From Ktedonobacterales bacterium (GTDB taxonomy: Bacteria; Chloroflexota; Ktedonobacteria; Ktedonobacterales; JADMIN01): a stretch of 32,000 bases of DNA. Both the position numbers and the translations under genes were made by a program. Positions 3,768 to 30,831 of the stretch are shown here, piece after piece (within the stretch, counting starts at the first letter, position 1; every line of letters starts with the position of its first letter). The notes beneath the pieces are model-generated. The model saw nothing but the letters and a program-made list of their open reading frames with translations. It had not been told where the DNA came from and made no database searches. The stretch spans positions 2,850,001 through 2,882,000 of the forward strand of contig CP126532.1 in NCBI GenBank assembly GCA_030167145.1, written 5' to 3'.

Positions 3768-3962
3768 GGGGCGCTCTCCCTTCTCTGTGTCTCGCCGACA
3801 AGAGCCTTTTGGCTGCGAACGTGTCATGCTACAATGGCGCAATCAGCTATAGGTCAGTATGTGCGCTTATGGCCTGTGAGACAATGATTCAGGCTCCGAG
3901 AGTGTTGATTAGAACGCCGAGATGTGCGGGGGACTCGCCCTCAGAGACGGAGATCGCGCTCG

Positions 3963-4994: not shown

Positions 4995-5052
4995 GGCGCC
5001 GGAAGGTCGGGTGGGTAGGGCAGGCAATCCTTCTAACCGTCTGCCGATTCGT

Positions 5053-6027: not shown

Positions 6028-6112
6028 GGCGATTCCTCCTTTGGACTACCGCGCGGGATAGGTAGGCTCTTGATGATACATGCGCATGCAGCGCGTATGG
6101 CGTCAAGGCGAA

Positions 6113-6156
6113 CCTCACCCCTGGCCCCTTCCCTCGTAGGGAAGGGGAGGCAGAGG
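6113..6156. repeat. REP-like GC-rich palindromic intergenic element
   Basis: CCTCACCCCTGGCCCCTTCCCTCGTAGGGAAGGGGAGGCAGAGG contains the hairpin CCTTCCCT/AGGGAAGG. It belongs to the same family as the elements at 12258 and 14177. Confidence 0.7.
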
Positions 6157-9847: not shown

Positions 9848-9920
9848 GTATGCCACCGGCACGAGCGGCAACGGCTACTTGCTGCCGTTCGTGCTGATGG
9901 CTCGCCAGGGTGTAGAGCAG

Positions 9921-10286
9921 CTACAGTGGGCTGCTGACTTCAAAGAGGATGTCATTCAGCGCGGTGAAATAGAAGCCATAGCTGTCTCTGATGTTTCGCG
10001 GCTCGTGGGCAATCTGCGCGTTGGCTGCGGTGAGACGATGATATGCCTGATCCACCTGATCGCGTGTTTCGACGATGAATCCAACGTGGAAGCCTTGTGG
10101 ATATGGGCGCACGTCATTGCCAAATGCGAGGAGGTTGCTCAGAACGAGCGTGAAGCCATGTCCATCGGTCATGATGAGGATGGCTTCGCCCTTCTGCTCC
10201 AGAAGCTGGAAATCGAAGGAGTTCTGGAAGAGCGCGCGTGCTGCGCTGAGGTCGTCCACGCAGAGATTGAGGTGATTGAATCGCAT
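9921..10286 (-). CDS. VOC / glyoxalase-bleomycin resistance family protein
   Basis: MRFNHLNLCVDDL...GFHVGF is the VOC pattern. GAGGAGAA RBS upstream of the ATG at 10286. Confidence 0.8.
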   Translation of the reverse strand: MRFNHLNLCVDDLSAARALFQNSFDFQLLEQKGEAILIMTDGHGFTLVLSNLLAFGNDVRPYPQGFHVGFIVETRDQVDQAYHRLTAANAQIAHEPRNIRDSYGFYFTALNDILFEVSSPL

Positions 10287-10420
10287 AGGGTTCTCCTCAG
10301 TTGGGAGGTCCAATGCGATGGGGCGTTGCGGTGGCACATACGCATCAGACCTCGACGTATCAGCAGATGAAGTGCATCTGCTGTTGTCGTGGGTCCTCGC
10401 GCTGATGCGCCGGACAGTTG

Positions 10421-10555: not shown

Positions 10556-10585
10556 TTGACAGATAGAACATTTGTTCAGTATACT
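10556..10585 (+). promoter_or_regulatory. Sigma70-like promoter, cassette copy A
   Basis: TTGACA (10556-10561), 18-nt spacer, TATACT (10580-10585). Confidence 0.6.
10566..10577. promoter_or_regulatory. Perfect GAAC-N4-GTTC palindrome (Cheo/LexA-box-like) inside the promoter A spacer
   Basis: GAACATTTGTTC. It is the only perfect N4-spaced GAAC/GTTC palindrome I found in the window. Confidence 0.5.
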
Positions 10586-10650
10586 CGTAGCGTCGGACGT
10601 TGAAGATGGAGTGCGAGATTCCGTAGCGCGTCTGGACAGATGTGTTTTTG

Positions 10651-10680
10651 GGCGGTGAGTCCGAGTAGGACGCCGCTCTC
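10651..10680 (+). promoter_or_regulatory. Conserved leader motif, copy A
   Basis: GGCGGTGAG-tccgagtag-GACGCCGCTCTC. Compare 21060-21089 and 27126-27154. Confidence 0.6.
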
Positions 10681-10723
10681 TCCCGTGGAAGGCCGCGGGC
10701 AGAGAGCGGCGTTTTGCTTTTTT
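10671..10723 (+). terminator. Intrinsic terminator within the leader, upstream of the protease RBS
   Basis: CGCCGCTCTCTCCCG (10671-10685) pairs with CGGG-c-AGAGAGCGGCG (10696-10711), followed by TTTTGCTTTTTT (10712-10723). Confidence 0.75.
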
Positions 10724-10759: not shown

Positions 10760-12253
10760 ATGGCGAGGAGAAGCGCGGCAGCGGTTGCGGGGAACGTGGG
10801 AAGCGCCGAAGTGGAACTCGAAGCGCGTGTGGAGGTGGCGGCGGGGATGGCGGGTGATGGCGTGGCGCGGGTGGGCTATGCGCCCATCGTGCGGGTGGAT
10901 GCGCCGCGTCGCGAGGTGGAGTTGTGCGCGACGAGTGAGGCGGTGGATTCGTATGGGACCGTCTTTGATTACGCGGCGAGCAAAGAGGCGTTCACACGGT
11001 GGCTGGGGAATGTGCGTGAGATGCACGACCGGCGCGCGGTGGGGCGACGGGTGGCGGTGCGCTGCGACGATGAGGCGCGGCGGATCTTCGTGCGGGTGCG
11101 GATCTCGGCGGGTGCGCGCGATACGTGGGAGAAGATTGCGGATGGGACGCTGCGCGGGGCGAGCATCGGCGCGAGTGATGTGGTGTGGGAGCGGCAGACG
11201 CGGCGGATTGGCGGGCAGGAGCGCACGTTGAACGTGGCGACGCGCTATGAGTTGGTCGAGTTGAGCCTGGTGGATAACCCGAGTAATCCCGATGCGCTGG
11301 GCATTACGATTGTGCGTGCGGCGACGCCTGATCCGGCGCTGTTGGATGCGCTGGATGCGGATGGGGCGATGGCGGAAGATGCGGCTGATTATGGGTACAC
11401 GCCGTGCGCCCCTACGGTGGCCGGTGGGGAGGGCAGGGATGCTGGCGCAGTGGCAAGGGTGTCTGCCCCACCGCGCGTGGGTGATGTGGGAACGAGCGCG
11501 CAGACAGGAATGTCCGCGCTACCGCAGACAGGGATGGTTGCGCGAGCAGAGGAGGAGATGGTTGGACGGATAGAGGAGGAGCGAGCGCTGGGGCCGTTCA
11601 GCGCGAATGCGGAGGGGCAGCCGGATATGGGGGTGCCCGCGCGGGCAGAGGAGCGGCCAACGAGCGCGTTGGAGAAGGGCGCACGCCATGCGCCCCTACT
11701 GATGCCGGATGGCAATGCGCGCGAACGGTTTCATGCGGCGGCGCGGAGCATCTTGCTGGGGTGCGGGTGCCCGCTCTGCGCGGGGGCTATCGCGGCGCTG
11801 GGCGAGGACGGTGAGGATGGCGGCGAGCGGTCGCAGGAAATGCGTGACGGCGGAGCGGCGGCGGTGACGGGATTGCGCGAAGCGGCGCTGGCACGGGCGC
11901 TGGCGGCGGGGCTGGGCGCGAGTGTGGCGCAGATGGCGCAGATGGATGCGAGCGTGCGGGCGCTGGATGGCCGGGTAGCGGGGGCGCTGGATGCGCTGAC
12001 GGGGACGCTGGGCGATCTGCGGATGCGGGTCGAGCAGATCGAGGCGCAGCCGATGCCGGGGGGTCCGGTGGCGCGTCCGGTTCCGGTGGAGAAGGTTGCG
12101 GCGCTGTCGGCGGGGTATGCGGCGGCGGGTGGTGAGGTGAGCGCAGCGGAGCAGTTTCGCGCGCTGGAGTCGCTGGCGGGGCGGCTGAGTGACCCGCAGG
12201 CGCAGATTGCGGTGGCGGCGGAGTTGATCCGGCTGCGGCAGGCGGGGCGGTAG
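10760..12253 (+). CDS. HK97-family prohead protease (S78/U35-like) fused to a long C-terminal scaffold-like region
   Basis: The N-terminal ~200 aa fit the prohead protease pattern: VELCATSEAVDSYGTVFDYAA..., MHD, GASIGAS and ELSLVDNPSNPDA. The C-terminal ~300 aa are Ala/Glu/Arg-rich and helical in character. GGGAGGGAG RBS 9 nt upstream. Confidence 0.85.
   Translation: MARRSAAAVAGNVGSAEVELEARVEVAAGMAGDGVARVGYAPIVRVDAPRREVELCATSEAVDSYGTVFDYAASKEAFTRWLGNVREMHDRRAVGRRVAVRCDDEARRIFVRVRISAGARDTWEKIADGTLRGASIGASDVVWERQTRRIGGQERTLNVATRYELVELSLVDNPSNPDALGITIVRAATPDPALLDALDADGAMAEDAADYGYTPCAPTVAGGEGRDAGAVARVSAPPRVGDVGTSAQTGMSALPQTGMVARAEEEMVGRIEEERALGPFSANAEGQPDMGVPARAEERPTSALEKGARHAPLLMPDGNARERFHAAARSILLGCGCPLCAGAIAALGEDGEDGGERSQEMRDGGAAAVTGLREAALARALAAGLGASVAQMAQMDASVRALDGRVAGALDALTGTLGDLRMRVEQIEAQPMPGGPVARPVPVEKVAALSAGYAAAGGEVSAAEQFRALESLAGRLSDPQAQIAVAAELIRLRQAGR
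11671..11699. repeat. REP-like hairpin element lying in-frame inside the protease-scaffold CDS
   Basis: GGAGAAGGGCGCACGCCATGCGCCCCTAC with hairpin GGGCGCA/TGCGCCC. It is translated as EKGARHAPL. A near-identical copy (2 mismatches in 23 nt) is intergenic at 12335-12357. Confidence 0.6.
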
Positions 12254-12257
12254 GGGA

Positions 12258-12401
12258 ACCTCTCCCCCGGCCCCTCTCCTACAAGGCGAGGGGAGAAGAA
12301 CGGACGCCCCTACGAGCGCCACATGGTCGCTAGAGGGCGCACGCCATGCACACCTACGAACGCTGCGCGCTGCTCCGACGAGGAGAGGGGAGAGCAGAGG
12401 G
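12258..12401. repeat. Cluster of REP-like GC-rich elements between the protease and capsid genes
   Basis: Contains ACCTCTCCCCCGGCCCCTCTCCTACAAGGCGAGGGGAGAAGAA, GGACGCCCCTACGAG, GGGCGCACGCCATGCACACCTAC and CGACGAGGAGAGGGGAGAGCAGAGG. Confidence 0.7.
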
Positions 12402-12655
12402 TCGCGACGCGCGCGAGGGGCGCCATGTTCGGCGGATGGGCGATTCAGGCATCACCCCTACAGATGGGTTCGACGACGTTTTCAGGCATTGCCACGGCAG
12501 ATTGTTTTCGCGATGTTTCGGCAAGTTGGCAAGCGAAAGGAGCGTGCGAAGGGATATACGGCACGAGCGAGCGATTTCACGCGATGGACGCAGGTGTGGC
12601 TGACAAGCAGCTACGCATCATGCACGAGTGTGTGTTGGAAGGAAGAGCAGAGGTT

Positions 12656-14176
12656 ATGGGAACGAGTCTGTACACGCCGGGGCCAGTTGGCCCGACGATT
12701 TCGGATGAGACGGTGGCGCTGGTGCGCCAGGCGATTGCGGAGACGACACGGGCAATCACGACGACGAGCGGACTGCTCGGCTATGAATTGGAGACGCCGG
12801 CGAAGGTGATCGTGCCGGTGATCACGCCGCTGGTGAATATGCTGCCCCGGCGCAAGGGACGTGGCGTGGACGTGGTGCATTGGAAGGCGATCACGTCGTT
12901 CGATACGGCGCGGAACTGGGGCACGCTGGCCGATGGCGGCACGCCGCAGAGTGTGACGTATGCGGTGGCGCAGTTGCAGAACACGCTGCAAACCATCTCG
13001 CTGATGAACTCGGTGAGCTTTCAGGCGCAGTGGCGTGGGCGTTCGCTGGAGGCGGATGTGCGAGCGCGGCGCGTGGCGGAGTTGCTCTATCAGCTCAAGA
13101 TGACGGAGGAACGCTGGATTCTGGGGGCGAGCGCGTATCTGATGACGCCGCCCGCGCCGGTGCTGGCGACGGCGACGACCGGCGGCACGGTGGCGGCGGG
13201 GACGTACTGGGTGGCGGTGACGGCGAAGAACGCGCAGGGCGAGACGCTCGGCTCGACCTTTGCGAAGATCGTGACGACGGGCAGCACCAGCACGGTGACG
13301 ATCACGATTTTCACTGTGCCGAACGCGACGCAGTACAACGTGTACATCGGCAGCGGTGGGAGCCAGCCCGCGGCGAGCGCGATGTGGCTGCAAGCGGGCA
13401 TTTCGGGGGCGAACGCGGCGCAGCCGAACGTGGGCGCGAGTGTGACGCTGGCGGATGGCGCGACGGTGATGCCGTCGGGCGAGGTGAACCCGGCGTATCT
13501 GACGGTGACGCTGAGCGCGCCACCGGCGACGAGTGGCACGGCGCTCTCGACAGTAGCGGCGAACACGGCCAAGACATTCGTGGACGGCTCGAACAATGTG
13601 CTGATGTGGGACGGGCTGATCGCGCAGGCGCTGAACAACGCGACGACGGCGAATGGCGCGACGCTGGGGGCGCAGGTGACGCAGCCAGCAGACCCAACTG
13701 GCAAACTGGCGCTGTCGGATATTGATAATCTGCTGGCGGGCATGTATTTGCAGGCGGCAGGCGACCCGGACTACATTGTGATGAATCCGCTAGACAACGT
13801 GCGGCTGACGAATCTGGTGGTGGGCGCGGGGCAACTGCGCTATGTGGTGCAGGCGGGGGATAGCGCGGACCAGGGGCAGCTCACGGCGCAGTACCGGGTG
13901 ACGCGGTATCTGAACAAGAGCACGGGCAAAGAGATGCCGATCATCCTGGATCGCTATTGCCCTCAGGGGTGCATCGTGTTCTTGCCGGTCTCGATTCCGT
14001 TCCCGGTGCCGGAGATCAGCACGGCGGTGGAGCTGGAGACGAACCAGGAATACTGGGGCGTGGACTTCGCGATCACCGACAGCAACTTCAAGTTCGCGGA
14101 CTTCGTGGAAGAGACGCTGAAGGTGTATTTCCTGGGTGGATTGGGGGTGATTCGCGGGATCTATCCGAGCTTCTAA
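12656..14176 (+). CDS. Phage major capsid protein (probably HK97 fold) with a large internal insertion domain
   Basis: Sits directly after the prohead protease. The N-terminal pattern GYELETPAKVIVPVITPLVNMLPRRKG...VHWKAIT and EERWILGAS is capsid-like. GGAAGGAAG..AGAGG RBS before the ATG at 12656. Confidence 0.75.
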   Translation: MGTSLYTPGPVGPTISDETVALVRQAIAETTRAITTTSGLLGYELETPAKVIVPVITPLVNMLPRRKGRGVDVVHWKAITSFDTARNWGTLADGGTPQSVTYAVAQLQNTLQTISLMNSVSFQAQWRGRSLEADVRARRVAELLYQLKMTEERWILGASAYLMTPPAPVLATATTGGTVAAGTYWVAVTAKNAQGETLGSTFAKIVTTGSTSTVTITIFTVPNATQYNVYIGSGGSQPAASAMWLQAGISGANAAQPNVGASVTLADGATVMPSGEVNPAYLTVTLSAPPATSGTALSTVAANTAKTFVDGSNNVLMWDGLIAQALNNATTANGATLGAQVTQPADPTGKLALSDIDNLLAGMYLQAAGDPDYIVMNPLDNVRLTNLVVGAGQLRYVVQAGDSADQGQLTAQYRVTRYLNKSTGKEMPIILDRYCPQGCIVFLPVSIPFPVPEISTAVELETNQEYWGVDFAITDSNFKFADFVEETLKVYFLGGLGVIRGIYPSF

Positions 14177-14316
14177 CCTCTCCCCCAGCCCCTCCCCTAC
14201 GAGGAGAGGGGAGAAGGAGAAGTGCGGCTCTTACGAGGAGAGGGGAGAAAAGGAGACCTCACCCAAGGCCCGATGGGCGTCCACCGGACGCCCCTACGAG
14301 GGGAGAAGGAGTGGGG
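14177..14316. repeat. Cluster of REP-like hairpin elements immediately after the capsid stop
   Basis: Contains CCTCTCCCCCAGCCCCTCCCCTACGAGGAGAGGGGAGAAGGAG, CTTACGAGGAGAGGGGAGAAAAGG, and GGGCGTCCACCGGACGCCCCTAC (14275-14297, identical to 24136-24158). Confidence 0.75.
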
Positions 14317-20327: not shown

Positions 20328-20909
20328 ATGAACCCCAATGAGCCGATGCCACCATTGCCGGAGGAGCAGCCGCCCTATTCGCAGGGGCAGCCCTACGATG
20401 TGACACAGAGTTATCAGGAGACACAACAGCGCTACGGGCAACAGCCACCACAGCCGTATGGACAACCGCCGCAGTACGGGCAGCCACCACAGCCGTATGG
20501 ACAACCGCCGCCACAACCGCAGCCGTATCAATCGGTGGACTATACGCGGTCGGTGCAGTCCACGCGGACGTATCAGCCGGGAGTTGTGCCACGACATTCG
20601 CAGGTCTATTTTCGCGTGCGGCAGATCGTCTATTTCATCCTGGGCATTCTCGAAGTCTTGCTGCTGATCCGGTTGCTGCTGAAGTTGCTGGGAGCCAACC
20701 CGGACGCGGGATTCACCGCTTTCATCTATGGTCTGACCGCGCCGTTCGTGTATCCCTTCCAGGGGGTGTTTCCCAGCCCTAGCAGCCAGGGCAGCGTGCT
20801 AGAGCTTTCGACGATCCTGGCGATGATCGTTTATGCGCTGCTGGCGTGGGTCGTGGTGAAAACGGTGGACATTATCAGCCGCCCGAAAGCGCCCGCGGAG
20901 ACAGCATAA
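20328..20909 (+). CDS. YggT family membrane protein with an N-terminal Pro/Gln/Tyr-rich repeat region
   Basis: C-terminal FILGILEVLLLIRLLLKLLGANP...LTAPFVYPFQGVFP. N-terminal QPPQPYGQPPQYGQPPQPYG is encoded by a near-tandem DNA repeat (20440-20510). GGAGGAGG RBS. Confidence 0.8.
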   Translation: MNPNEPMPPLPEEQPPYSQGQPYDVTQSYQETQQRYGQQPPQPYGQPPQYGQPPQPYGQPPPQPQPYQSVDYTRSVQSTRTYQPGVVPRHSQVYFRVRQIVYFILGILEVLLLIRLLLKLLGANPDAGFTAFIYGLTAPFVYPFQGVFPSPSSQGSVLELSTILAMIVYALLAWVVVKTVDIISRPKAPAETA

Positions 20910-20989
20910 GCGCTCGTCATAGTACGCCAACTCACGCCAGTTCCGGTCAGTTCACGACATGACCTGGGTCCTGAGAACGCCGCCACCAC

Positions 20990-21019
20990 TTGCGAAAAGT
21001 AGAAACTATGTTCTATAGT
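20990..21019 (+). promoter_or_regulatory. Sigma70-like promoter, cassette copy B
   Basis: TTGCGA (20990-20995), 18-nt spacer, TATAGT (21014-21019). Confidence 0.5.
21002..21013. promoter_or_regulatory. GAAC-N4-GTTC-like box (one mismatch) in the promoter B spacer
   Basis: GAAACTATGTTC abuts the -10 element. A second inverted repeat, CAGAAC-N8-GTTCTG, lies at 21020-21039. Confidence 0.4.
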
Positions 21020-21059
21020 CAGAACGCCGGGTAGTTCTGGGTGCCTATCCCGGTTTCCG

Positions 21060-21089
21060 GGCGGTGAGCCTGAGCAGGGCGCCGCTCTC
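21060..21089 (+). promoter_or_regulatory. Conserved leader motif, copy B
   Basis: GGCGGTGAG-cctgagcag-GGCGCCGCTCTC. Confidence 0.6.
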
Positions 21090-21145
21090 GATGTTCCGTC
21101 GCTGGGAGTAGACGGGGTGTCGGGGGTGGCGTCCTGTTTTTTGTT
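21076..21145 (+). terminator. Leader hairpin plus T-tract (intrinsic terminator-like), copy B
   Basis: AGGGCGCCGCTCTC (21076-21089) can pair with GGGGGTGGCGTCCT (21122-21135) as 14 bp including 4 G-U pairs, followed by GTTTTTTGTT. Confidence 0.55.
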
Positions 21146-21186
21146 GGCGAGGCATGTGGACAGGTGGATGTGAGGAGGTGGCGGAG

Positions 21187-22113
21187 ATGACGGCGGCGAT
21201 TGGGGTGAGCGCGTATGTGGATGTGCCCGCGTTTCTGCGGGCGGCGGTGAATCTGGAGACGGCGTCACTGCTGGGGTTGAATACGACGGTGGGGGTGGGC
21301 GGTGTGGCGGCGGGTGCGACGAGCCTGCCGGTGGTGGCGTCCACAGGATGGGCAGTGGGTCCGCTGTGGTTGCTGGATGGACCGTATGCGGAGATGGCGC
21401 AGGTGACGGGTTCGGTGGATGGGACGCATCTGACGCTGGCCGCGCCGGGGACACAATTCGCGCATGGGGCGGGGGTCTCGGCGAGCCAGGCGGGGACGGG
21501 CGGCGCGCTGGCGGAGGTGCTGCTGCGGGCGAGCGCGTGGATCGAGAATTATTGCCAGCAGGGAACGTCGGCTATAGATCGGTCGCTGTATGCGGTGAGC
21601 CGGAGCGAACGCTGGGGTATGCCGGACATGCGCGCGAACCTGGATCGCGATGGCGTGCTGGTGGTGCGCCCCGGTCATTTTCCGGTGCAGTCGGTGACGG
21701 CGCTGGCGATTGACCTGGGGCAGGGGCAGACGCTCAGCTTCGATGCGACACAGGTGCAGCTTGCCTCAAATGGGCGGGTGATCGAGCTGCCGTACCTGCT
21801 CTCCACCGCGCCGAATCCGGGGCAAGTGCTGGGGTGTCCGGGGGTGGGCCTGTCGCGCGTGCGTCGGCAATGGGTGACGCTGACGTATACCGGCGGGCTG
21901 ACACCAGGGGCGCTACCGTATGACGTGCGGCAGGCGTGCATTTGGGTGGCGAGCGAGCTATTGGCCGAGCGGCGCAACCCGACGGGCGCGGCGGCGGTGC
22001 GCCAGGGGAAGTTCGAGCTGCAAGCGCGGCTGCGCGGCGACGCCTCGCCGGACTCGCTGCTGCTGGCGCAGGCGAAGGCGGCGCTGGAGCCGTATCGTGT
22101 GGGGCAGATGTGA
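21187..22113 (+). CDS. Phage gp6-like head-tail connector (adaptor) domain protein with an N-terminal extension
   Basis: The central pattern LLRASAWIENYCQQG...RSL...VVRPGHFPVQSVTALAIDLGQGQTLSFDATQVQL..GRVIEL matches the gp6-like connector consensus (A..IE.Y..r.l...L...PV.SV..v..d). GAGGAGG RBS before the ATG at 21187. Confidence 0.6.
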   Translation: MTAAIGVSAYVDVPAFLRAAVNLETASLLGLNTTVGVGGVAAGATSLPVVASTGWAVGPLWLLDGPYAEMAQVTGSVDGTHLTLAAPGTQFAHGAGVSASQAGTGGALAEVLLRASAWIENYCQQGTSAIDRSLYAVSRSERWGMPDMRANLDRDGVLVVRPGHFPVQSVTALAIDLGQGQTLSFDATQVQLASNGRVIELPYLLSTAPNPGQVLGCPGVGLSRVRRQWVTLTYTGGLTPGALPYDVRQACIWVASELLAERRNPTGAAAVRQGKFELQARLRGDASPDSLLLAQAKAALEPYRVGQM

Positions 22114-22130: not shown

Positions 22131-23162
22131 TCAGGATGCGCGCTGGCGCCGACTGCGTACAACGCCTGTCGCCAGTTTGACGATGAACATGATAGTACCA
22201 AGGCAACTCAGTGCTGCTCCTGCTAGGCCGATCACGACAAGAGCAATAACGAAGGGACTGCTTTTGGAGGCCAGCCCTAGCTCCGAGATGATGACGAGGC
22301 CAAAGACAGGCAGACTTGCTATGCCATCGAACAGTATGATACGGATACCCCAGGACGGTCGGACCAGCTTGCTCTTGCGAACGGTTATCACGATCAATGA
22401 AATACCACAGGAAAGCAACACGACACCCACTGCCTCAGCAGCGTAGAAAAGCAAGCTCTGGATGCTATCACTTGGGCTGAAGAAGGTATGAAGGGAAATG
22501 ATGACAAGGAGCATGAGCGCACAGCCATGAAAAACACGTTCAAGTCTGCGTTCCCAGTTTGGCTGCGCGGTGGGTGGTGGGTTATTGCGCGGTTCCGGTT
22601 CCATACTTCGCTCCCTTGCAAAGGCGGATGCTATGCCGGTGAGCGCTGCTGCTGCCGTCGGGCAATGATGCGCTGGCCCGGTGGAGATGCGCTGGCCCGG
22701 TGGAGATGCGATGAACGCAAACGCAAGGCTCCCACAGCCGATGGCGAGAACAAGATAGGGTTCGACTGCACGCTGTAGCGCCAAAAGGCCAGGTGCAAGC
22801 TCATAGAGCGTTGGGAGTGTGCCATTGGGCAAGAGGCGTGCCAGTGAATCGTAAGCCCACGGTGGAAGAAGAAGGAATGCGACTATGAGACTCAATGGGA
22901 TGCGCCAAGAGCGCAATGTCCATGGACGCCGAATAGCGTTCCCTGCCAGTAGCAGCATATTGGCGCAGCACCATATCAGGGCGTTGAGGCTGAGCGCAAA
23001 GCCCAGGCCGGTGTGCTTCGAATCGAAAGACACAATCCAGGCAAGGGGCAGGAAGAGTACAAAGCAGCCGACCCATGCGACTAGCAAGATACGTTCCCAC
23101 CATGCGAGCGGGACAACTGGATGCTGCGCTATTTCGGTGGGCGGCTGCTCATTCGATTCCAT
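22131..23162 (-). CDS. Multi-pass integral membrane protein of unknown family
   Basis: About 8 hydrophobic helices. GAGGAG RBS before the ATG at 23162 (MESNEQPP...). AT-richer than its flanks. Opposite strand to the flanking phage-like genes. Confidence 0.6.
   Translation of the reverse strand: MESNEQPPTEIAQHPVVPLAWWERILLVAWVGCFVLFLPLAWIVSFDSKHTGLGFALSLNALIWCCANMLLLAGNAIRRPWTLRSWRIPLSLIVAFLLLPPWAYDSLARLLPNGTLPTLYELAPGLLALQRAVEPYLVLAIGCGSLAFAFIASPPGQRISTGPAHHCPTAAAALTGIASAFARERSMEPEPRNNPPPTAQPNWERRLERVFHGCALMLLVIISLHTFFSPSDSIQSLLFYAAEAVGVVLLSCGISLIVITVRKSKLVRPSWGIRIILFDGIASLPVFGLVIISELGLASKSSPFVIALVVIGLAGAALSCLGTIMFIVKLATGVVRSRRQRAS
22667..22710. repeat. Perfect 19-bp tandem duplication inside the membrane-protein CDS
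   Basis: GATGCGCTGGCCCGGTGGA occurs twice (22667-22685 and 22686-22704), followed by a partial GATGCG. Confidence 0.9.
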
Positions 23163-23246
23163 AGCTGCTCCTCGCATTTCGGCTGGCGCGTGGCGCAATC
23201 CAAGCATACACCATAGGCGGCAGATTGAGAAGGAAGGAAAACCAAG

Positions 23247-23564
23247 ATGATTTTCACGACGGTTCGGTTGGAGCGGCCAGAGGGGACGGCGCTGTTGCAT
23301 GGCATCGGCGCGCAGATCGAGCAGGCCGCGGCGGATGACCTGGCGCGCGCTGAGTTGGAAGGTGCGCGTCCGTATGATGTGTTCTGGCTCTACACAACGC
23401 AGGGTGTGCCAGCGGTTCCGCTCCAGCGGCGCGATGTGCTCTTCGACGAGCAGAACAACGACCTCGAAACTGGCCAGCCCGCCAAATATCGTGTCGCGGG
23501 GCTGGTCGAGACTTTCGATAACGATCATCAAGAGGCGCTCTGCGAGCGTGTCGTGGGAGGATAG
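23247..23564 (+). CDS. Phage head-closure / head-tail joining-like protein
   Basis: 105 aa. The size, its position after the connector, and the C-terminal pattern DVLFDE....YRVAGLVETFDNDHQEALCERV resemble gp7/SPP1 gp16-type proteins. This is pattern memory only. Confidence 0.45.
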   Translation: MIFTTVRLERPEGTALLHGIGAQIEQAAADDLARAELEGARPYDVFWLYTTQGVPAVPLQRRDVLFDEQNNDLETGQPAKYRVAGLVETFDNDHQEALCERVVGG

Positions 23565-23572
23565 GGAACATC

Positions 23573-24115
23573 ATGCCAGGCCCGGTTACGCTGCCCGGAC
23601 AGCCAGCGACCTTCGCCGCGCTCCAGGCGATGCAGTCCGTGATTCTGAGTGAATGCCTCGTCGGTGGAGTGTCGCCGTTCGCCGCGCTCTCGTCCGCCGA
23701 TATCGCGCGCTTCGGCGTCGCCAATGCGGTGTTCATCGGCCAGCCGAAAGATTTTAAGGATGCCTATCTGCCGCAGTGCAGCCTGTGGATTCCGCCGGAG
23801 AGCGAGAGCGCCGCGCTGCTGGGCTTCGCGGGGCGCGCCGTGGCGGAGTTCGAGGCGCGGGTGCGTGTCATGGTGGATCTGCGCGCGGACTGGTACGCCG
23901 CCGAGCAGCAGATACTGGCGATTCGCGATGCGCTCTGGCCGGTGCTGCTGCGGCACGAACGCCTGGGCGGGACGGTGACGAGTGTCGTCGCGGGCGAGGC
24001 GCGAGCCGGGCGTGGCCTCTGCTATGAGACGGTGGCGGGCGCGCAGTATCGCTGCTTCGAGGCGCTGTGGTGGGTGCGCCAGCAGTGGAACATCACCGGT
24101 GGGCACGTCGCCTGA
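23573..24115 (+). CDS. Phage neck / tail-terminator-like protein (DUF3168-like?)
   Basis: 180 aa, translationally coupled to the previous gene (its GGGAGGA RBS overlaps that gene's stop). The positional argument is stronger than the sequence argument. Confidence 0.35.
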   Translation: MPGPVTLPGQPATFAALQAMQSVILSECLVGGVSPFAALSSADIARFGVANAVFIGQPKDFKDAYLPQCSLWIPPESESAALLGFAGRAVAEFEARVRVMVDLRADWYAAEQQILAIRDALWPVLLRHERLGGTVTSVVAGEARAGRGLCYETVAGAQYRCFEALWWVRQQWNITGGHVA

Positions 24116-24135: not shown

Positions 24136-24158
24136 ACCGCGCGACGGGCGTCCACCGG
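24136..24158. repeat. REP-like hairpin, exact copy of 14275-14297
   Basis: GGGCGTCCACCGGACGCCCCTAC with stem GGGCGTCC/GGACGCCC, located 21 nt after the stop of the neck-module gene. Confidence 0.8.
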
Positions 24159-24405
24159 ACGCCCCTACAATGGCGTGCCGCCGCTCCACTTCGATCACAG
24201 CCCGCTCCGCTCCTACACGTCGCTCGCTGCGCCGTGTGCTGGCCCCGCCGTCGCGGGTTAGGCAGAGAGTGACAATGGAACGATTGAGGGCTGCGCTGGG
24301 ACTTTTCGCCTGCCACGGCTGAGCGTTGTGCTACGCTGGGCGCACTGCTTGCGCTTCGCTCAATGGCGAGCGAACGGTTTCTTGAAGGATGTGAGATACC
24401 GGCCC

Positions 24406-25505: not shown

Positions 25506-25534
25506 TTGACGCCGCTTGCTCACCGTACTACACT
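25506..25534 (+). promoter_or_regulatory. Sigma70-like promoter upstream of the propeller gene (site D)
   Basis: TTGACG (25506-25511), 17-nt spacer, TACACT (25529-25534). Confidence 0.45.
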
Positions 25535-25556
25535 GTTTTGGCGAACAGGGCGGGCG

Positions 25557-25579
25557 ATGTGAGCATGGCGCCGCTCGTC
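25557..25579 (+). promoter_or_regulatory. Partial copy of the conserved leader motif (site D)
   Basis: ATGTGAGCATGGCGCCGCTCGTC shares GTGAG and ATGGCGCCGCTC with copy C. The spacer is 3 nt rather than 9, and I found no clear partner arm. Confidence 0.3.
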
Positions 25580-25620
25580 ATTGACCAACGACAATACCTT
25601 TTTGAGGTGGAGGCAGTGTA

Positions 25621-26925
25621 GTGCGGAAGCGTCACATCCTGATTACGTGTACCCTTGTGGTCTCTCTTGCTATGGTGGCAGGCGGTGTCGGACTGGTCGC
25701 GCGTACTGTTCGCGCGCATCCGGCCATTCCCACCATCATCTGCGGCCCATTGATTCACAGCGGGCCTGGTTGTTCTCCCTGGAAGGTTGTTGCCAGCGCA
25801 AATATTGCTTCCAGCAAGAACGACATTCTGCATGGCGCGGCGGCTATCTCATCCAGCGATGTCTGGGCGGTGGGCTACTCTCAGCAGACTACCGGAAGTT
25901 TCTACCAGACGCTCACCGAGCATTGGAATGGCTCCGCGTGGAGCATCGTCGCCAGCCCCAACGGCGGCACGGCTGACAACAAATTGCAGGCTGTCGCTGC
26001 TATCTCATCCAGTGATGTCTGGGCGGTGGGCTACTCGCAATCGAGCGGCACGTATTCCGCGCTCATCGAACACTGGAATGGCGCGACGTGGAGCATTGTT
26101 CCCAGCGGCGCGACTGGTGTTCTCTACAGCGTAGCGGCGCTCGCGACGGACAATGTCTGGGCGGTGGGCATGGCGATCAATCCTGGCGGCGGCTCTTCGA
26201 CGCTGGTCGAGCATTGGGATGGATCGAGTTGGAGCGTCGTGCCCAGTCCCAATGGTTCACTAGTTGGCGGAAACCATCTCTATGGTGTCGCGGCGGTTGC
26301 GACGAACGACATCTGGGCCGTGGGTGGATACGGCGCGGCCAGTGGCGATCAAACGCTGGTCGAACATTGGGATGGCAACACCTGGAGTGTCGTGCCCAGC
26401 CCGAACGGCAGCATCCTCACCAATGAGCTTTTCAGTGTAGCGGCAGCTTCATCCGGGGATGTGTGGGCCGTAGGGTTCTTTAATGTGGCGAGTGGCAATG
26501 GCTCGCAGACGCTGATCGAACATTGGAACGGCACAAGTTGGAACAGCGTGCCCAGCGCGAACTGTGGCACGTACAACAGTCTGTCTGCGGTGGCTGTGGT
26601 TGGGCTTAACAATGTTTGGGCTGTGGGTGGGTGTTCCGGCGCGAACGGACAGACTCTCGGCCAGGCGATGGCAGAGCGCTGGAATGGCACGAATTGGAGC
26701 TACCTGCCCACGGCGAGCACAAGCGCCGCGTTTCCGGGCGCCGCGAATGTCTCGTTGAACGCCATAGCCGTCGCTTCGGCGTCTGACATCTGGGCGGTAG
26801 GGTATGCAGGCGCTGGGGACGGCATCGGGCTGTACCCGAACGCCACCCTGGTCGAGCGCGCAAACATCACCATCACCCGTGGTGGCCTGCTCCATGGGCG
26901 GCTCGCTTTCCCATTCGCTAAATAA
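25621..26925 (+). CDS. Secreted 7-bladed beta-propeller repeat protein (WAVG / EHWNG..WS.VPSPN repeats)
   Basis: Seven ~50-aa repeats of the type ..AAISSSDVWAVGY....TLIEHWNGS.WSIVPSPNG. N-terminal signal/anchor. GTG start with a GAGGTGGAGG RBS. Confidence 0.8.
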   Translation: MRKRHILITCTLVVSLAMVAGGVGLVARTVRAHPAIPTIICGPLIHSGPGCSPWKVVASANIASSKNDILHGAAAISSSDVWAVGYSQQTTGSFYQTLTEHWNGSAWSIVASPNGGTADNKLQAVAAISSSDVWAVGYSQSSGTYSALIEHWNGATWSIVPSGATGVLYSVAALATDNVWAVGMAINPGGGSSTLVEHWDGSSWSVVPSPNGSLVGGNHLYGVAAVATNDIWAVGGYGAASGDQTLVEHWDGNTWSVVPSPNGSILTNELFSVAAASSGDVWAVGFFNVASGNGSQTLIEHWNGTSWNSVPSANCGTYNSLSAVAVVGLNNVWAVGGCSGANGQTLGQAMAERWNGTNWSYLPTASTSAAFPGAANVSLNAIAVASASDIWAVGYAGAGDGIGLYPNATLVERANITITRGGLLHGRLAFPFAK

Positions 26926-27081: not shown

Positions 27082-27110
27082 TTGCGGGAATGGAACATCT
27101 GTTTTAGGCT
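27082..27110 (+). promoter_or_regulatory. Sigma70-like promoter, cassette copy C
   Basis: TTGCGG (27082-27087), 17-nt spacer, TAGGCT (27105-27110). The -10 is weaker. An alternative -35, TTGACG, lies at 27115-27120. Confidence 0.4.
27093..27104. promoter_or_regulatory. GAAC-N4-GTTC-like box (one mismatch) in the promoter C spacer
   Basis: GAACATCTGTTT abuts the -10 element, the same placement as in copies A and B. Confidence 0.4.
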
Positions 27111-27125
27111 TGTGTTGACGAAATC

Positions 27126-27154
27126 GCGGTGAGCCGGAATATGGCGCCGCTCTC
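27126..27154 (+). promoter_or_regulatory. Conserved leader motif, copy C
   Basis: GCGGTGAG-ccggaatat-GGCGCCGCTCTC. Confidence 0.6.
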
Positions 27155-27200
27155 TCCCAGGGCTATGCCGTGGGCGGAGGGCGGCGCTATTCGCATTTCG
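27144..27200 (+). promoter_or_regulatory. Leader hairpin, copy C, with a weak U-tract
   Basis: GCGCCGCTCTCTCCC (27144-27158) pairs with GGGCGGAGGGCGGCGC (27172-27187) over about 15 bp with 2 G-U pairs and 1 mismatch, followed by TATTCGCATTTCGG. Confidence 0.5.
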
Positions 27201-27234
27201 GTGGGTGATCGAAGAGAAAGTGAGGTGGGGATTT

Positions 27235-30200
27235 ATGGCGGGGACACTGTTGAAACTTGGCTACTCGAATCCGTTGACGGATAGCTTTGGCGCGCATCCT
27301 ATCCTGGGGCCAGTGCTGGACCTGAACGACGGCGCAACGTATACGCTGCTCGCGCCGGAAGTGGGAGGGATAGAGTTACAGCCGCCGCCGAGGACCATTG
27401 CTTTGGCGGGCAATATCCGCACGCAGGGCGAACGGGCGACACGGGCGCTGTATCGCCACAACCGCACGGTGCGCGTGCCGCTGCTGCTCGGTCCCATGTC
27501 GTCGTATGCGGCGCTCACCGCTGCCCTCCGTGAACTGCTGCAATGGGTCAACGCTGCTCCGCAAGTGCCGATGACGCTGCTGTATCAGCCACCCAACGCC
27601 ACGCAACCCGTCTATCTCGACATCGTGGGTGCGGCGCACTCGCTGCCAGCGGATGAGAGCGATTGGCTGCGGTTGCAGTTAGAGCCGGTGGAACTGGTGT
27701 TCGTCTGCCGTCCTGGGCTGCGTGGGGATCGCATCACCTTGCAGAATCTGGTGAGCAATCCTGGCTTCGAGCAGGGCAGTGGGCCAGGCGTGCCGGTCTT
27801 CACTGAACTCTTCGCCAACCTTGCGGCGTACACGCAGGTCGCAGGGAGTGCGCCCACGCTGGCTCCGGCCAATACGTTTGTGGACGCGCTCATGGCGAAT
27901 GGCGGTAGTGCGCTGCTGGCGTACTACCGGCTGGATGAAACGTCGGGAACGGCGGCGTACGACATCGCGGGGCAGGGGTACACCGGTACGACGCACGGCA
28001 GTCCGACACAGAACGTGGCGGGGTTGCTCAGCGGGGACACGGATGCGTGCTACACCTTCGCCTCGGCCAGCTCGCAATACGTGAGCGTGCCGTCAACTGC
28101 GGTGTTCCCGTCGGGCAATAGCCCGCTTAGTGTCGGCGTGTGGTTCAAGATTGCGAGCGCACCGGCGGCGACGGCGCAGTTGTGGAGCTACGGCGACATC
28201 ACGACGGGACATCATGCGCTCTCGCTGTATCTGGCGACCACGGGCAAGCTGACCTGTGATGTGGGGGCAGGGGCGTCGGTGCTTTCCTCGGCCTCAGCGG
28301 TCTCGAACGCGGTGGCGCACTTCGCGGCGCTGACCTGGGATGGGACGACACTGACGCTGTGGCTGGATGGCGTCTCGCAGGGGACGGCGACACCAGGCGC
28401 ACAATCCATCCCCACGACGCCGACGGTGAACCTGGGGGCGAATGCGACGCCGGCGGCGTACTTCAGCGGGCAACTGGATGAGGCGTGCCTCTGGTCGGCG
28501 GCGCTCTCCTCGACGCAAATTGCGAACATCTACACCGCTGGACATTCTGGCGCGAGCGGCACACTGGCCTCGGCGTTCAGCCTTCCGGTCAGCGGGCAGG
28601 TCAGTTTCGGGAGCGCGCAATGGGCCTCGGTGAATGCGTGGCAGCTACGGTTCCGCTACACCACAGGGCTGACGCTGCGGGCGTTCTTGCATTATGTGGA
28701 TGGCAACAACTACGTGCAGGCGCAGGTGACGGGGACACAACTCAGCCTCGCCCACAAGGTCGGTGGCACCTTCACCACGATCCAGACGGTGACGGTGGCG
28801 CTCACCTATGAGGGGTGGTACTGGCTGCAATGCACGCAGTTCCCTACGGTGAATGCGACGCCAACGACACAGTTCCCGAATGTCAATGCCAACTATCCGT
28901 ATCTCACGGCGGCGGTGACCTACGATGACAATGGGGCGGTGGGGGCGCAGATCGCCGCAGCCAGTGGGCCAGCGGTGGATGTCGCCATCGCGCTGACGGG
29001 TAAGCCGCAGATGCTCGCGCAAGGGGCGGCGCTGGTGGTGGGTGGGAACGTGGTCAATCTGTTCGGGCCAGGGGGATGGAGTGTGGCGACCGGCGGCGGC
29101 GCGGGCGGCCTGGGCGTCACCAGCGTGGCTATCGGTTCGTGGGAACAAGCCTCCGCTAATCTGCCACCCCTCGGCCTGGTCAACGTCAACGCGGGGAATG
29201 CGGTGCAGGTGCCAGTGACCTCGTATGGCTGTGCGCGCTTAGATATTCCCGCTGGTTCCACGGCGCTAGATGCGCGGTGGCAGACACCGACGAGCGGGTT
29301 CGGGCCAAATGGCCTTATCCCGCTTCCAGGTTCCGGCGGCGCAGGGGTCACGCTGGCCTATGCCTTCGCCGCCAACTCCACAGGATTTGCGGGCACGGCG
29401 CGGGTGCAACTCTACTGGACCGAGTACACAGCGGCGGGGGCGGCGCTGGGGACGTATCAGGCTGCAAGCGTGACGCCACCGGCGGGGTGGCAGGGGTACG
29501 CCAGTACCTTCGTGACACAGAATGCGGGGTGCGCGGCGATCTCCATCTTCATCCGCATCCTCGATGCGGCGACGGGGACGAGCGTGGGGGCGGTGCTGTG
29601 GCTCGACAATGTGCAGGTGTGGAGCGTGAGCAGCACAGGGCTGGCAGTGGGCAGCATGCCGTACTGTGAACTGCGGTTCCCGCAGTCGCCCGCGCAGGTG
29701 GTGCTGAGCGGATTGCTGGGTGATCTGCCGTGTCCGGCGGCGCTCAGCTTCGGCGCCTACCTCACATCGCTACCGCAGGGCGGCGCGCTCAGCTTCGCGG
29801 TGGGACGCTCCGCGCAACCTTCGGCGACGGCGCGACTGACGGCGGCGATGAACGGGTTCTATGGGAGCGCGCTCGGCGCGGGGCAGCAGGCGACGGCGGC
29901 GCTGGATGCGACGGCGTATGGGGGCTATACGATCTCGAACAATCCGCAGACGGGGTGGAGCGCGAAGGGGTTCGCGCCGCTGGCCAGTGACGCGCCGGGG
30001 GTGTATCATCTGCTCGAACGGTTCCTCTCGACGCAGAGCGTGGGCAACCTGCCCAATGTGCAGGTGCGGGCGAACACGCAGCAGCGGCTGCTGCCATGGT
30101 TCGGGGCATCCTCCTCAGCCGACCAGCTTGGCAACAGCTATGGGCCGTATGCGGCGCTGCTCTCCGCGAGCAACACGTGGACTATCGTAGACACGGGGCA

Positions 30201-30723
30201 GGTGACGCTGCCGCCCTATAGCCAGGGGGCGATGACGGACCCGACACAAACGTATCTCGTGCCGCATCCGCAGTGGCAAGATCTGACGGCGGGCGGGGCC
30301 ATGTGTAGCGCGAGCTGGTGCGCGCTGCTGCCGATAGATGGGTCGCTCATCGTCGGCGTGGTGAACAATCCGAGCAATGCGGCTTCGGCGCTCTCGAACA
30401 CCTGGCTGTGGACGTATTTCGATGGGCTGCTGGTGAACCGGGCGGCAGCGCAAGATGCGCCAGGGTGGCTCTACTCACTCGAAGCGGTAGCGACGCCGAA
30501 TGCGGCGCATGCGGGTGGTGGGCCAGGGACACAGGGGACGGGGAATGTGAACGTGAACAGTGGGGCCGATCCGTATCTCATCCTTGACCCGACGAGTGCG
30601 CTTCCTCAAACGGGGCAAGCAGGAGTCAATCAACTGGTGGCCTATGTGGCAGATCAGGCGGGTGCGGTGCTGGGATTCGCGGGTGAGGTGAGCTATAGTC
30701 CGTTGTACCTGTGGCCTCGGTAG
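27235..30723 (+). CDS. Large (1163 aa) LamG / concanavalin-A-like lectin domain protein; putative fibre or host-recognition component
   Basis: LamG pattern at about 27910-28539 (LLAYYRLDETSG...GDTDACYTF...SVGVWFK...HFAALTWDGTTLTLWLDG...FSGQLDEACLWSAALS). NPGFEQG and LWLDNVQVW are CBM4_9-like edges. GAGGTGGGG RBS before the ATG at 27235. Confidence 0.75.
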   Translation: MAGTLLKLGYSNPLTDSFGAHPILGPVLDLNDGATYTLLAPEVGGIELQPPPRTIALAGNIRTQGERATRALYRHNRTVRVPLLLGPMSSYAALTAALRELLQWVNAAPQVPMTLLYQPPNATQPVYLDIVGAAHSLPADESDWLRLQLEPVELVFVCRPGLRGDRITLQNLVSNPGFEQGSGPGVPVFTELFANLAAYTQVAGSAPTLAPANTFVDALMANGGSALLAYYRLDETSGTAAYDIAGQGYTGTTHGSPTQNVAGLLSGDTDACYTFASASSQYVSVPSTAVFPSGNSPLSVGVWFKIASAPAATAQLWSYGDITTGHHALSLYLATTGKLTCDVGAGASVLSSASAVSNAVAHFAALTWDGTTLTLWLDGVSQGTATPGAQSIPTTPTVNLGANATPAAYFSGQLDEACLWSAALSSTQIANIYTAGHSGASGTLASAFSLPVSGQVSFGSAQWASVNAWQLRFRYTTGLTLRAFLHYVDGNNYVQAQVTGTQLSLAHKVGGTFTTIQTVTVALTYEGWYWLQCTQFPTVNATPTTQFPNVNANYPYLTAAVTYDDNGAVGAQIAAASGPAVDVAIALTGKPQMLAQGAALVVGGNVVNLFGPGGWSVATGGGAGGLGVTSVAIGSWEQASANLPPLGLVNVNAGNAVQVPVTSYGCARLDIPAGSTALDARWQTPTSGFGPNGLIPLPGSGGAGVTLAYAFAANSTGFAGTARVQLYWTEYTAAGAALGTYQAASVTPPAGWQGYASTFVTQNAGCAAISIFIRILDAATGTSVGAVLWLDNVQVWSVSSTGLAVGSMPYCELRFPQSPAQVVLSGLLGDLPCPAALSFGAYLTSLPQGGALSFAVGRSAQPSATARLTAAMNGFYGSALGAGQQATAALDATAYGGYTISNNPQTGWSAKGFAPLASDAPGVYHLLERFLSTQSVGNLPNVQVRANTQQRLLPWFGASSSADQLGNSYGPYAALLSASNTWTIVDTGQVTLPPYSQGAMTDPTQTYLVPHPQWQDLTAGGAMCSASWCALLPIDGSLIVGVVNNPSNAASALSNTWLWTYFDGLLVNRAAAQDAPGWLYSLEAVATPNAAHAGGGPGTQGTGNVNVNSGADPYLILDPTSALPQTGQAGVNQLVAYVADQAGAVLGFAGEVSYSPLYLWPR

Positions 30724-30728
30724 TGTGA

Positions 30729-30803
30729 GGTAAGCCAAGGTAAGCCAAGGTAAGCCAAGGTAAGCCAAGGTAAGCCAAGGTAAGCCAAGGTAAGCCAAGG
30801 TAA
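30729..30803. repeat. Perfect 10-bp tandem repeat, 7.5 copies
   Basis: GGTAAGCCAA repeated 7 times plus GGTAA, starting 6 nt after the stop of the LamG gene. Confidence 0.95.
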
Positions 30804-30831
30804 ATGACTGAGGGAGAAGGGAGGACGGAAG

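Follow-up and report, generated by a model that had tools for sequence, protein, structure and literature searches.

Phage late genes and gene transfer agents (GTAs) are documented to be controlled by a leader terminator and its antitermination, and in GTAs the antitermination step coordinates dispersed loci of domesticated phage origin (10.1101/2024.11.20.624540). In the lambdoid (PR'-tR'/Q) and GTA systems (BaGTA with BrrG; CcGTA with GafYZ), a promoter, a short leader and a strong terminator precede the head and tail genes. A similar arrangement is described here for a 32,000-nt stretch of chromosomal DNA (contig CP126532.1, positions 2,850,001 to 2,882,000; the whole stretch is hereafter called the window) from a metagenome-assembled genome of a Ktedonobacterales bacterium (Chloroflexota), the contig being ~5.07 Mb in length. 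The window carries three copies of a regulatory cassette, A, B and C, each situated 5' of a phage-derived structural gene; copy B, which serves a gene for a gp6-like head-tail adaptor, is the main subject. Its design is a textbook one, in which late genes of phage type are preceded by a candidate antiterminator hairpin, here named P1, and by an intrinsic terminator with which it competes; it works like the control systems of the ribonucleic antiterminator (RAT)/LicT, ANTAR and lambdoid/GTA types but belongs to none of these families.

Q-type factors act processively through a DNA site and a sigma-dependent pause, whereas here it is an RNA hairpin overlapping the terminator that is conserved; the cassette has no shared -10-like pause and adds a LexA-type operator. 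Systems of the RAT/terminator kind (BglG/SacY/LicT; ANTAR-, PyrR- and HutP-type) likewise place a small conserved hairpin over the 5' arm of a terminator, and there as here the hairpin is much weaker than the terminator; it needs a bound protein to win, as P1 presumably would. However, P1 (5 bp, GA bulge, 4 bp, GNRNA pentaloop) matches no RAT, ANTAR, PyrR or HutP RNA target, and the cassette serves phage structural genes and not catabolic operons. ANTAR targets comprise two hexaloop hairpins, in contrast to the single bulged pentaloop hairpin found here, with no second one common to copies A, B and C. Readings of the leader as a riboswitch, RAT or ANTAR element were ruled out by architecture and size, 25 nt being too small for an aptamer.

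Copy B is interpreted as a two-layer transcriptional control of the phage-derived adaptor gene, involving a conditional terminator that would be relieved by a factor, and the probability of this interpretation is put at about 0.55. Confidence is high that the leader is genuine, conserved and cis-regulatory and that two helices compete in it; that relief comes through a factor-stabilized P1 is tentative, with odds a little short of even. The parts of copy B are the following.

20990 to 20995, plus strand: -35 element TTGCGA (promoter scan 9/12, 18-nt spacer; TTGnnn kept in 19 related promoters).
21001 to 21014, unstranded: putative operator AGAAACTATGTTCT, a palindrome of LexA/Cheo-box type (GAAC-N4-GTTC) that occupies the spacer and adjoins the -10 element.
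21014 to 21019, plus strand: -10 element TATAGT (sequence and promoter scan).
21020 to 21039, unstranded: inverted repeat CAGAAC-N8-GTTCTG at the predicted transcript start, repeating the operator half-sites.
21061 to 21085, plus strand: P1 hairpin, the candidate antiterminator (minimum free energy of the isolated RNA, -13.5 kcal/mol).
21073 to 21138, plus strand: terminator hairpin of 31-33 bp with a GC-rich core at 21075-21136 (folding, helix covariation, terminator scan).
21137 to 21145, plus strand: U-tract UUUUUUGUU.
21172 to 21178, plus strand: Shine-Dalgarno sequence GAGGAGG, 8 nt 5' of the ATG.
21187 to 22113, plus strand: gene for the head-tail adaptor (gp6-like), 308 aa (phrog_442, E = 6e-11).

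Much of this had been recognized in an initial annotation made from the sequence alone. The promoter TTGCGA-18-TATAGT was found where it had been placed, with GAAACTATGTTC (21002-21013) in the spacer, and the proposed GAGGAGG and ATG are present as well, the start at 21187 being that of the deposited NCBI protein OJF49_002757 (308 aa; 100% identity and coverage). Other parts exist but are now understood differently. The spacer sequence is a GAAC-N4-GTTC operator and the best-conserved part of the cassette; the leader motif, at 21061-21089, is a structured RNA hairpin and not a mere block of sequence; and the 14-bp stem pairing 21076-21089 with 21122-21135, followed by UUUUUUGUU, is only part of the 31-33-bp hairpin. 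The additional inverted repeat is real (CAGAAC at 21020-21025, GTTCTG at 21034-21039), but it is confined to copy B and was found neither in copies A and C nor in any related cassette.

P1 comprises 25 nt that form a 5-bp stem, a 2-nt bulge, a 4-bp stem (generally GYCN:NGRC) and a GNRNA pentaloop; in copy B these are GCGGU:GCCGC, GA, GCCU:GGGC and GAGCA, respectively. Folded alone, the known versions of P1 have energies of -9.5 to -14.9 kcal/mol. In a 10-sequence alignment, 97.8% of cells were paired, three pairs showed double changes, and one of 500 shuffles reached this value; in the alignment of 12 copies, which adds L015 and L043 (the prefix L denotes the loci collected for comparison) and in which the L015 row was placed by structure, by eye, 107 of the 108 cells were paired, none of 2000 shuffles equaled the value, and seven of the nine pairs showed more than one pair type. 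The cassette sequences are mutually related, and these shuffle statistics overstate their independence. The L015 version maintains the architecture with other letters (GGUGG-UU-CGAC-GUGUA-GUCG-CCGCC) through compensatory changes. A structural descriptor of P1 (5 bp, 2-nt bulge, 4 bp, G-N-R-N-A) found 15 sites on both strands of 264 kb, 10 of which are cassettes. No Rfam family matched anywhere in the window at the gathering threshold, and a permissive scan of 20950-21200 returned only noise (E > 1). A small upstream hairpin seen in minimum-free-energy folds of copies A and B (GGGC-GGUGA-GYCC) was rejected, its upstream partner not being conserved in C, L009, L012 and L023.

The compensatory changes in P1 bear on the idea that the conserved string acts as DNA, either as a site resembling the operon polarity suppressor (ops) element GGCGGTAG for a NusG paralog or as a site for a transcription factor, or that it is a functionless repeat akin to repetitive extragenic palindromic (REP) or miniature inverted-repeat transposable elements. 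The motif GGCGGTGAG does resemble the RfaH ops core GGCGGTAG, and the genome is rich in palindromic repeats. However, the variants GGUGGU (L018v, L015) and GCGGUC (L036) break the ops-like string and keep the pairing by compensation; an RfaH/LoaP ops site GGCGGTAGnnTG was ruled out by this covariation, GGCGGTGAG varying to GGTGGT and GCGGTC in the DNA with RNA pairing retained. Nor does a mobile repeat account for the fixed position and orientation between operator-promoter and structural gene, for three occurrences per 32 kb and none elsewhere, or for inter-module sequences that, unlike those of a mobile repeat, are not shared. The idea is accordingly given very little credence.

The second helix is the terminator. 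The 89-nt segment of copy B folds with -56.5 kcal/mol (z = -6.3 relative to dinucleotide shuffles), of which the hairpin alone provides ~-49 kcal/mol, and this GC-rich hairpin leads directly into a U-rich tract, as is characteristic of intrinsic terminators. Across seven cassettes the helix was 96% paired, as opposed to 43-62% with the partners slid; double changes occur at two pairs, and G-C to G-U changes are found solely on the 3' side, the 5' arm being invariant. A canonical U-tract follows the hairpin in seven of the 12 copies, B among them.

The 5' arm of the terminator begins, in every one of the 12 copies, with the 3' strand of P1 (NGRCGCCGC), and because they share this strand the two structures exclude each other. 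Two mutually exclusive helices sharing a strand, both with covariation, are the generic makings of an attenuator; judged from the sequence, the layout is that of a classic antiterminator/terminator. When the leader was folded at increasing lengths, P1 was part of the minimum-free-energy structure until the 3' arm was transcribed (in copy B, to 21121), whereupon the full hairpin replaced it. Enforcing P1 costs 12.7, 17.9 and 12.7 kcal/mol in A, B and C, respectively; the stem beside the U-tract is then lost, leaving an apical stub away from the U-tract. Since P1 is far weaker than the terminator, termination would be the expected default. The initial annotation had predicted that transcription from this promoter should stop between promoter and ribosome-binding site (RBS) unless overridden, and the covariation, the U-tracts and the overlap of P1 with the terminator support that prediction.

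The 5' strand of P1 (GCGGUGAG), its bulge and its loop show more sequence conservation between lineages and among three gene types than pairing would demand, and as they have no role in the terminator, their conservation argues for a trans-acting reader. A mechanism can be proposed on this basis. In the first layer, a LexA-type repressor bound to the spacer palindrome would keep the sigma-70-type promoter off until DNA damage allows it to fire. In the second, the ~120-nt leader would fold first into P1; as RNA polymerase proceeds, the 3' arm of the 31-33-bp hairpin would displace the 5' strand of P1, and the full hairpin with its U-tract would terminate transcription at 21137-21145, ~45 nt before the RBS. 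A sequence-specific, trans-acting RNA-binding factor holding P1 closed would permit only the apical stub to form, resulting in read-through into the gene. With the same module on A, B and C, one factor could co-induce loci separated by insertions of cellular genes.

A related possibility is that P1 or promoter-proximal DNA loads a processive factor of the nut/boxB or Q type, in which case the overlap between P1 and terminator would be secondary. In the boxB hairpins of lambda and P22, one base is extruded from a GNRA-like pentaloop (GAAAA, GAAGA, GACAA), and P1, too, is a short hairpin in a phage-derived leader whose loop is GNRNA in 11 of the 12 copies (L043 has a hexaloop) with a freely variable fourth base, a likeness in pattern. 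In addition, the string CGCUCUC that follows P1 is reminiscent of boxA (CGCUCUUA), the antiterminators of GTAs are Q-like and processive and operate together with leader terminators, and the Q-binding element of lambda is also located in a promoter spacer. Compared with N-boxB, however, the P1 stem is longer and bulged, it overlaps a terminator, no boxA lies 5' of it, and no Arg-rich N-like protein is tied to it. The boxA-like string comes after P1 and is not preserved in L018v, L036 and L015, and A, B and C have no conserved element 5' of P1 in common. That the whole 3' strand of P1 lies inside the terminator 5' arm in all 12 copies is needed by a competition between structures, not by processive systems. 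With respect to Q, the inverted repeat in the spacer is the LexA consensus and persists at loci without a leader terminator, and no -10-like pause element is common to A, B and C downstream of the promoters. Neither N-like or Q-like nor BrrG- or GafZ-like proteins were found in protein-family scans of the window open reading frames (ORFs) and of the L015 flanks. A processive mechanism is considered unlikely, though not negligible.

The operator is the most widespread component. It was present in all 19 related promoters examined, at A-, B-, C- and orphan-type loci, in a fixed register: TTGnnn, 5-6 nt, GAAC-N4-GTTC, and TAnnnT, with the right half-site abutting the -10 element. Perfect versions are GAACATATGTTC (L043), GAACATGTGTTC (L036) and GAACATTTGTTC (copy A), and the copy B box GAAACTATGTTC has one mismatch. 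GAAC-N4-GTTC is the consensus of LexA of the Gram-positive type (Cheo box), and the LexA protein of Chloroflexota (Dehalococcoides) reportedly binds such a motif; as expected of a Cheo box, the palindrome overlaps the core promoter. We infer that it is an operator for LexA or a LexA-like repressor. LexA operators at SOS-controlled prophage, tailocin and bacteriocin promoters appear to place the same palindrome over the core promoter; here, by comparison, the operator is combined with a downstream attenuator and is found on the individual fragments of a dispersed set.

Related cassettes were identified in at least nine other Ktedonobacterales loci by exact-pattern scans of genomes and metagenomes and by look-up of contigs with homologs of the structural genes. 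They precede A orthologs in L009, L011, L012, L035, L036 and L043 and a B ortholog in L023; the P1/terminator module is common at A (eight of 10 loci) and rare at B (the window and L023) and C (the window only). The operator-promoter without P1 or terminator was found at B orthologs in L017, L022, L032, L033 and L034, at C orthologs in L022, L033 and L034, and at the A ortholog in L040. Because the operator is universal and P1 and the terminator are often missing, the operator-promoter is viewed as the ancestral control and the attenuator as a patchy layer added to it; being missing from most B orthologs, the attenuator must be dispensable, and terminator control at B, which was otherwise supported, is amended to an optional second layer. 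Copy B and the B cassette of L023 share the variant CGCCGCTCTCG, and B did not, therefore, arise from A by recent duplication. Homolog searches of IMG/VR with the A, B and capsid proteins provided four useful loci; an 87-kb contig labeled viral holds host genes. Eight of eight loose-motif matches in IMG/VR were chance occurrences inside coding sequence, and strict-pattern matches in Bradyrhizobium, Salinicola and others were likewise dismissed as chance on account of their context inside coding regions.

Two further alternatives were considered. The module could be a constitutive attenuator or insulator that protects against read-through from yggT into potentially harmful particle genes, with P1 tuning its efficiency and no factor involved. 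The terminator does follow yggT (20328-20909), which has the same orientation, the orthologs do not all possess the module, no factor was found, and terminators at the edges of integrated elements are documented: the T1 terminator of Tn916 shields element genes from host read-through and is overridden by the cis-acting RNA canT (PMC11658703). By comparison, canT is a larger RNA, processive and factor-independent, that does not overlap the terminator, and upstream read-through and own-promoter transcripts would, in contrast to Tn916, both contain P1. Moreover, the conservation of the P1 5' strand, bulge and loop exceeds what pairing requires, a hairpin of ~-49 kcal/mol with 6 U placed directly behind a regulated promoter would shut off the transcripts of that very promoter, and copy A has no convincing co-oriented gene 5' of it. 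Pure insulation is rated quite improbable.

The short terminated transcript could also be the product itself, an ~80-120-nt small RNA or a decoy for a P1-binding factor, with the structural genes expressed through read-through or from other promoters. Lambda makes the short 6S RNA from PR'. An orphan cassette in L018 (7812-7945; TTGACG-18-TATAGT, box GAATAAATGTTC, variant P1 GUGGUGAGCUUGAAAAGAGCGCCGC and hairpin) is followed only by two convergent minus-strand genes and lies 2 kb 5' of the adaptor gene of that genome; either an insertion has displaced it or it is a small-RNA gene that stands on its own. Such an insertion of 2 kb between the cassette and B could explain the case, however; 11 of the 12 cassettes lie 30-110 nt 5' of the RBS and start codon of a structural gene, and neither the length nor the sequence of the leader outside P1 and the terminator is conserved among A, B and C. 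A transcript functioning in its own right is considered most improbable.

With the two-layer, factor-relieved reading of copy B set against these alternatives, a number of results nevertheless weigh against it, in addition to the mutual relatedness of the aligned cassettes. U-tracts are poor in five of the 12 copies (C, L012, L023, L018v and L043). P1 is so much weaker than the terminator that a leader with no factor to act on it would either be off constitutively or just leak. Most B orthologs (five loci), three C orthologs and the A ortholog L040 lack both P1 and the terminator. Neither a recA nor a lexA locus was found by tblastn in the 488 kb of sequence collected. No RNA-binding regulator was recognized in the window or beside any cassette when all window ORFs and the genes flanking the L015 cluster were searched with Pfam, PHROG and NCBIfam, and an Arg-rich 96-aa ORF beside the L018 cassette was rejected as a candidate, none of its eight homologs being in this genome and the one in L044 belonging to a locus without a cassette. 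The same scans of the window ORFs found no CAT_RBD, CAT/PRD, ANTAR or NusG domain, and an all-against-all comparison of ORFs from 10 cassette loci showed only the structural genes to be conserved. A 163-aa ORF at 9879-10370 looks spurious.

The window contains exactly three cassettes, at 10556-10723, 20990-21145 and 27082-27190. The 29-nt motif GCGGTGAGnCnGAnnAnGnCGCCGCTCTC occurs three times (10652, 21061 and 27126) against 0.01 expected, and a covariance model built from seven cassettes recovered, with filters off, these three window copies only. A promoter scan called five sigma-70-like sites in 19 kb, two of which are the A and B promoters, and a terminator scan called one terminator-like site, within the B hairpin. 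The parts of copies A and C and the other genes of the phage-derived set are as follows.

10556 to 10585, plus strand: copy A promoter TTGACA-18-TATACT with operator GAACATTTGTTC (10566-10577).
10652 to 10676, plus strand: copy A P1 hairpin.
10663 to 10723, plus strand: terminator of copy A, comprising the hairpin and the T-tract UUUUGCUUUUUU (-53.5 kcal/mol for the 78-nt fold, z = -6.7).
10760 to 14176, plus strand: copy A genes, namely a prohead protease/scaffold-like gene (10760-12253) and a gene for a probable major capsid protein (12323-14176).
23247 to 24115, plus strand: 105-aa and 180-aa genes of the same phage-derived set (tblastn, 70-82% identity).
27082 to 27110, plus strand: copy C promoter TTGCGG-17-TAGGCT with operator GAACATCTGTTT (27093-27104).
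27126 to 27150, plus strand: copy C P1 hairpin.
27141 to 27190, plus strand: copy C hairpin with weak U-tract CUAUUCGCAUUUCG.
27205 to 30723, plus strand: copy C gene for a structural or fibre-like protein of ~1170 aa with a Laminin_G_3 domain (start GTG 27205 or ATG 27236).

Leaders of the A type carry an extra conserved block between the -10 element and P1 (GTTG-N5-GGAGTGCG / GTAGTGCG; window 10599-10615), which is also present in L009, L011, L035, L036 and L043 and not in copies B and C or L012; this block is a possible second RNA element, peculiar to the protease/capsid leader. The cassette of L015 (at ~3.37-3.39 Mb; 4942-5110) comes with a promoter of its own, a strong terminator and a divergent P1, and is without the GAAC-N4-GTTC box; GGCGGTAG, an exact match to the RfaH-ops core, is situated immediately past its terminator (5097-5104), and the 1.3 kb upstream (3870-5159) are non-coding with internal repeats. 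At 13300-13330 of L040, GCGGCGATGGCGCCGCTCTCGAT is found 5' of the 105-aa gene, with 13 nt (CGCCGCTCTCGAT) in common with the 5' arm of copy B and no terminator; this may be a decayed cassette or a coincidence.

Identification of the gene served by copy B as that of a gp6-like connector, the name given in the initial annotation, was borne out. The label is fair because of the match of the protein to the PHROG head-tail adaptor family phrog_442 and the Foldseek matches of its AlphaFold2 model to neck and adaptor chains, including the T5 portal complex (9ilp_a), the RcGTA neck (6toa_D and 6te8_B) and the Milano neck (8fxr). These structural matches had probabilities of 0.99-1.0 but TM-scores of 0.3-0.5, the predicted local distance difference test score of the model is only 67, and the match to TIGR02215 (E = 9e-6) was under the cutoff. 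Detected homologs of the adaptor number 259, those with a named source being almost all from Ktedonobacterales, and a ratio of nonsynonymous to synonymous substitution of 0.18-0.29 indicates purifying selection. The copy A genes matched phrog_9427 (head maturation protease, E = 2e-29), phrog_13692, NF045541 and TIGR01543; the capsid label of the 617-aa protein depends on weak SU10_MCP matches in orthologs, and sequence searches of the PDB with the 330-aa and 617-aa proteins were uninformative.

The organization of the set was compared among loci. In other genomes, the 105-aa and ~180-aa genes come directly after the adaptor gene, and their window counterparts resemble the genes after B in L018, L022, L023 and L015 (tblastn). 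The order is yggT, adaptor, 105 aa and 185 aa in L022, L033 and L034, and protease, capsid, yggT, adaptor, one inserted minus-strand gene, and 105-aa and 185-aa genes in L040; L015, in the same genome as the window, is a compact paralogous cluster of protease, capsid, adaptor, portal and terminase genes. Cellular genes for an NHL protein, an ABM monooxygenase, a Rieske oxygenase, an esterase and YggT lie between the window cassettes. A minus-strand gene for a membrane protein (22131-23165) splits the adaptor gene from the 105-aa gene in the window, these two being adjacent in L022, L033, L034 and L018; no operator-promoter is visible 5' of the window 105-aa gene (23247). The adaptor gene is syntenic with yggT at seven loci. 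The yggT-family membrane-protein gene (window 20328-20909) is also located within or beside the set in L017, L022, L032, L033, L034 and L040, in the last between capsid and adaptor, and this constant embedding suggests that it either moves together with the set or was recruited into its service. The genes served look like a conserved, vertically inherited phage-like structural set of Ktedonobacterales and not a transient prophage.

Other features of the window were observed. Between the neck genes and cassette C, a gene at 25506-26925 encodes a secreted protein of 434 aa with six tandem repeats of ~50 aa (WAVGY...WNG...W, propeller-like), preceded by a promoter-like TTGACG-17-TACACT without an operator box. 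From the stop codon of the copy C gene (1172 aa) onward (30708-30823), a 10-nt unit, AGGTAAGCCA, is repeated in about nine perfect tandem copies. Short GC-rich palindromic families resembling REP sequences, such as AACCTCTCCCC...GAGGGGAG and GGGCGTCCACCGGACGCCCCTAC, are found in intergenic positions (sites at 6111-6152, 12257-12298 and 14175-14216; 14268-14302 and 24139-24173; 11392, 11676 and 12334), two of the repeats flanking the probable capsid gene.

The cassette is probably an on/off switch for phage-like particle genes, built on an undescribed RNA motif. What is new is this motif, which lies outside Rfam, and its service to a set of genes that is conserved and under purifying selection. 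It is an unlikely but far-reaching possibility that the cassettes control a domesticated, vertically inherited GTA- or tailocin-like particle set general to Ktedonobacterales, fragmented by cellular genes and with yggT embedded in it, whose fragments are kept co-expressed by an SOS operator and a new boxB-like hairpin on each of them and by a dedicated RNA-binding antiterminator; if true, neither a particle system of this kind nor an antitermination RNA/protein pair of this kind would have been described in Chloroflexota before. To our knowledge, almost no gene regulation has been characterized in this phylum, which lacks genetic parts, and the cassette offers it a ready-made, testable set of promoter, operator and terminator. 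Should the factor that reads P1 be found, it would provide a handle on how Ktedonobacterales switch on the production of phage-like particles, and a non-proteobacterial case of domesticated phage elements wired by termination and antitermination.

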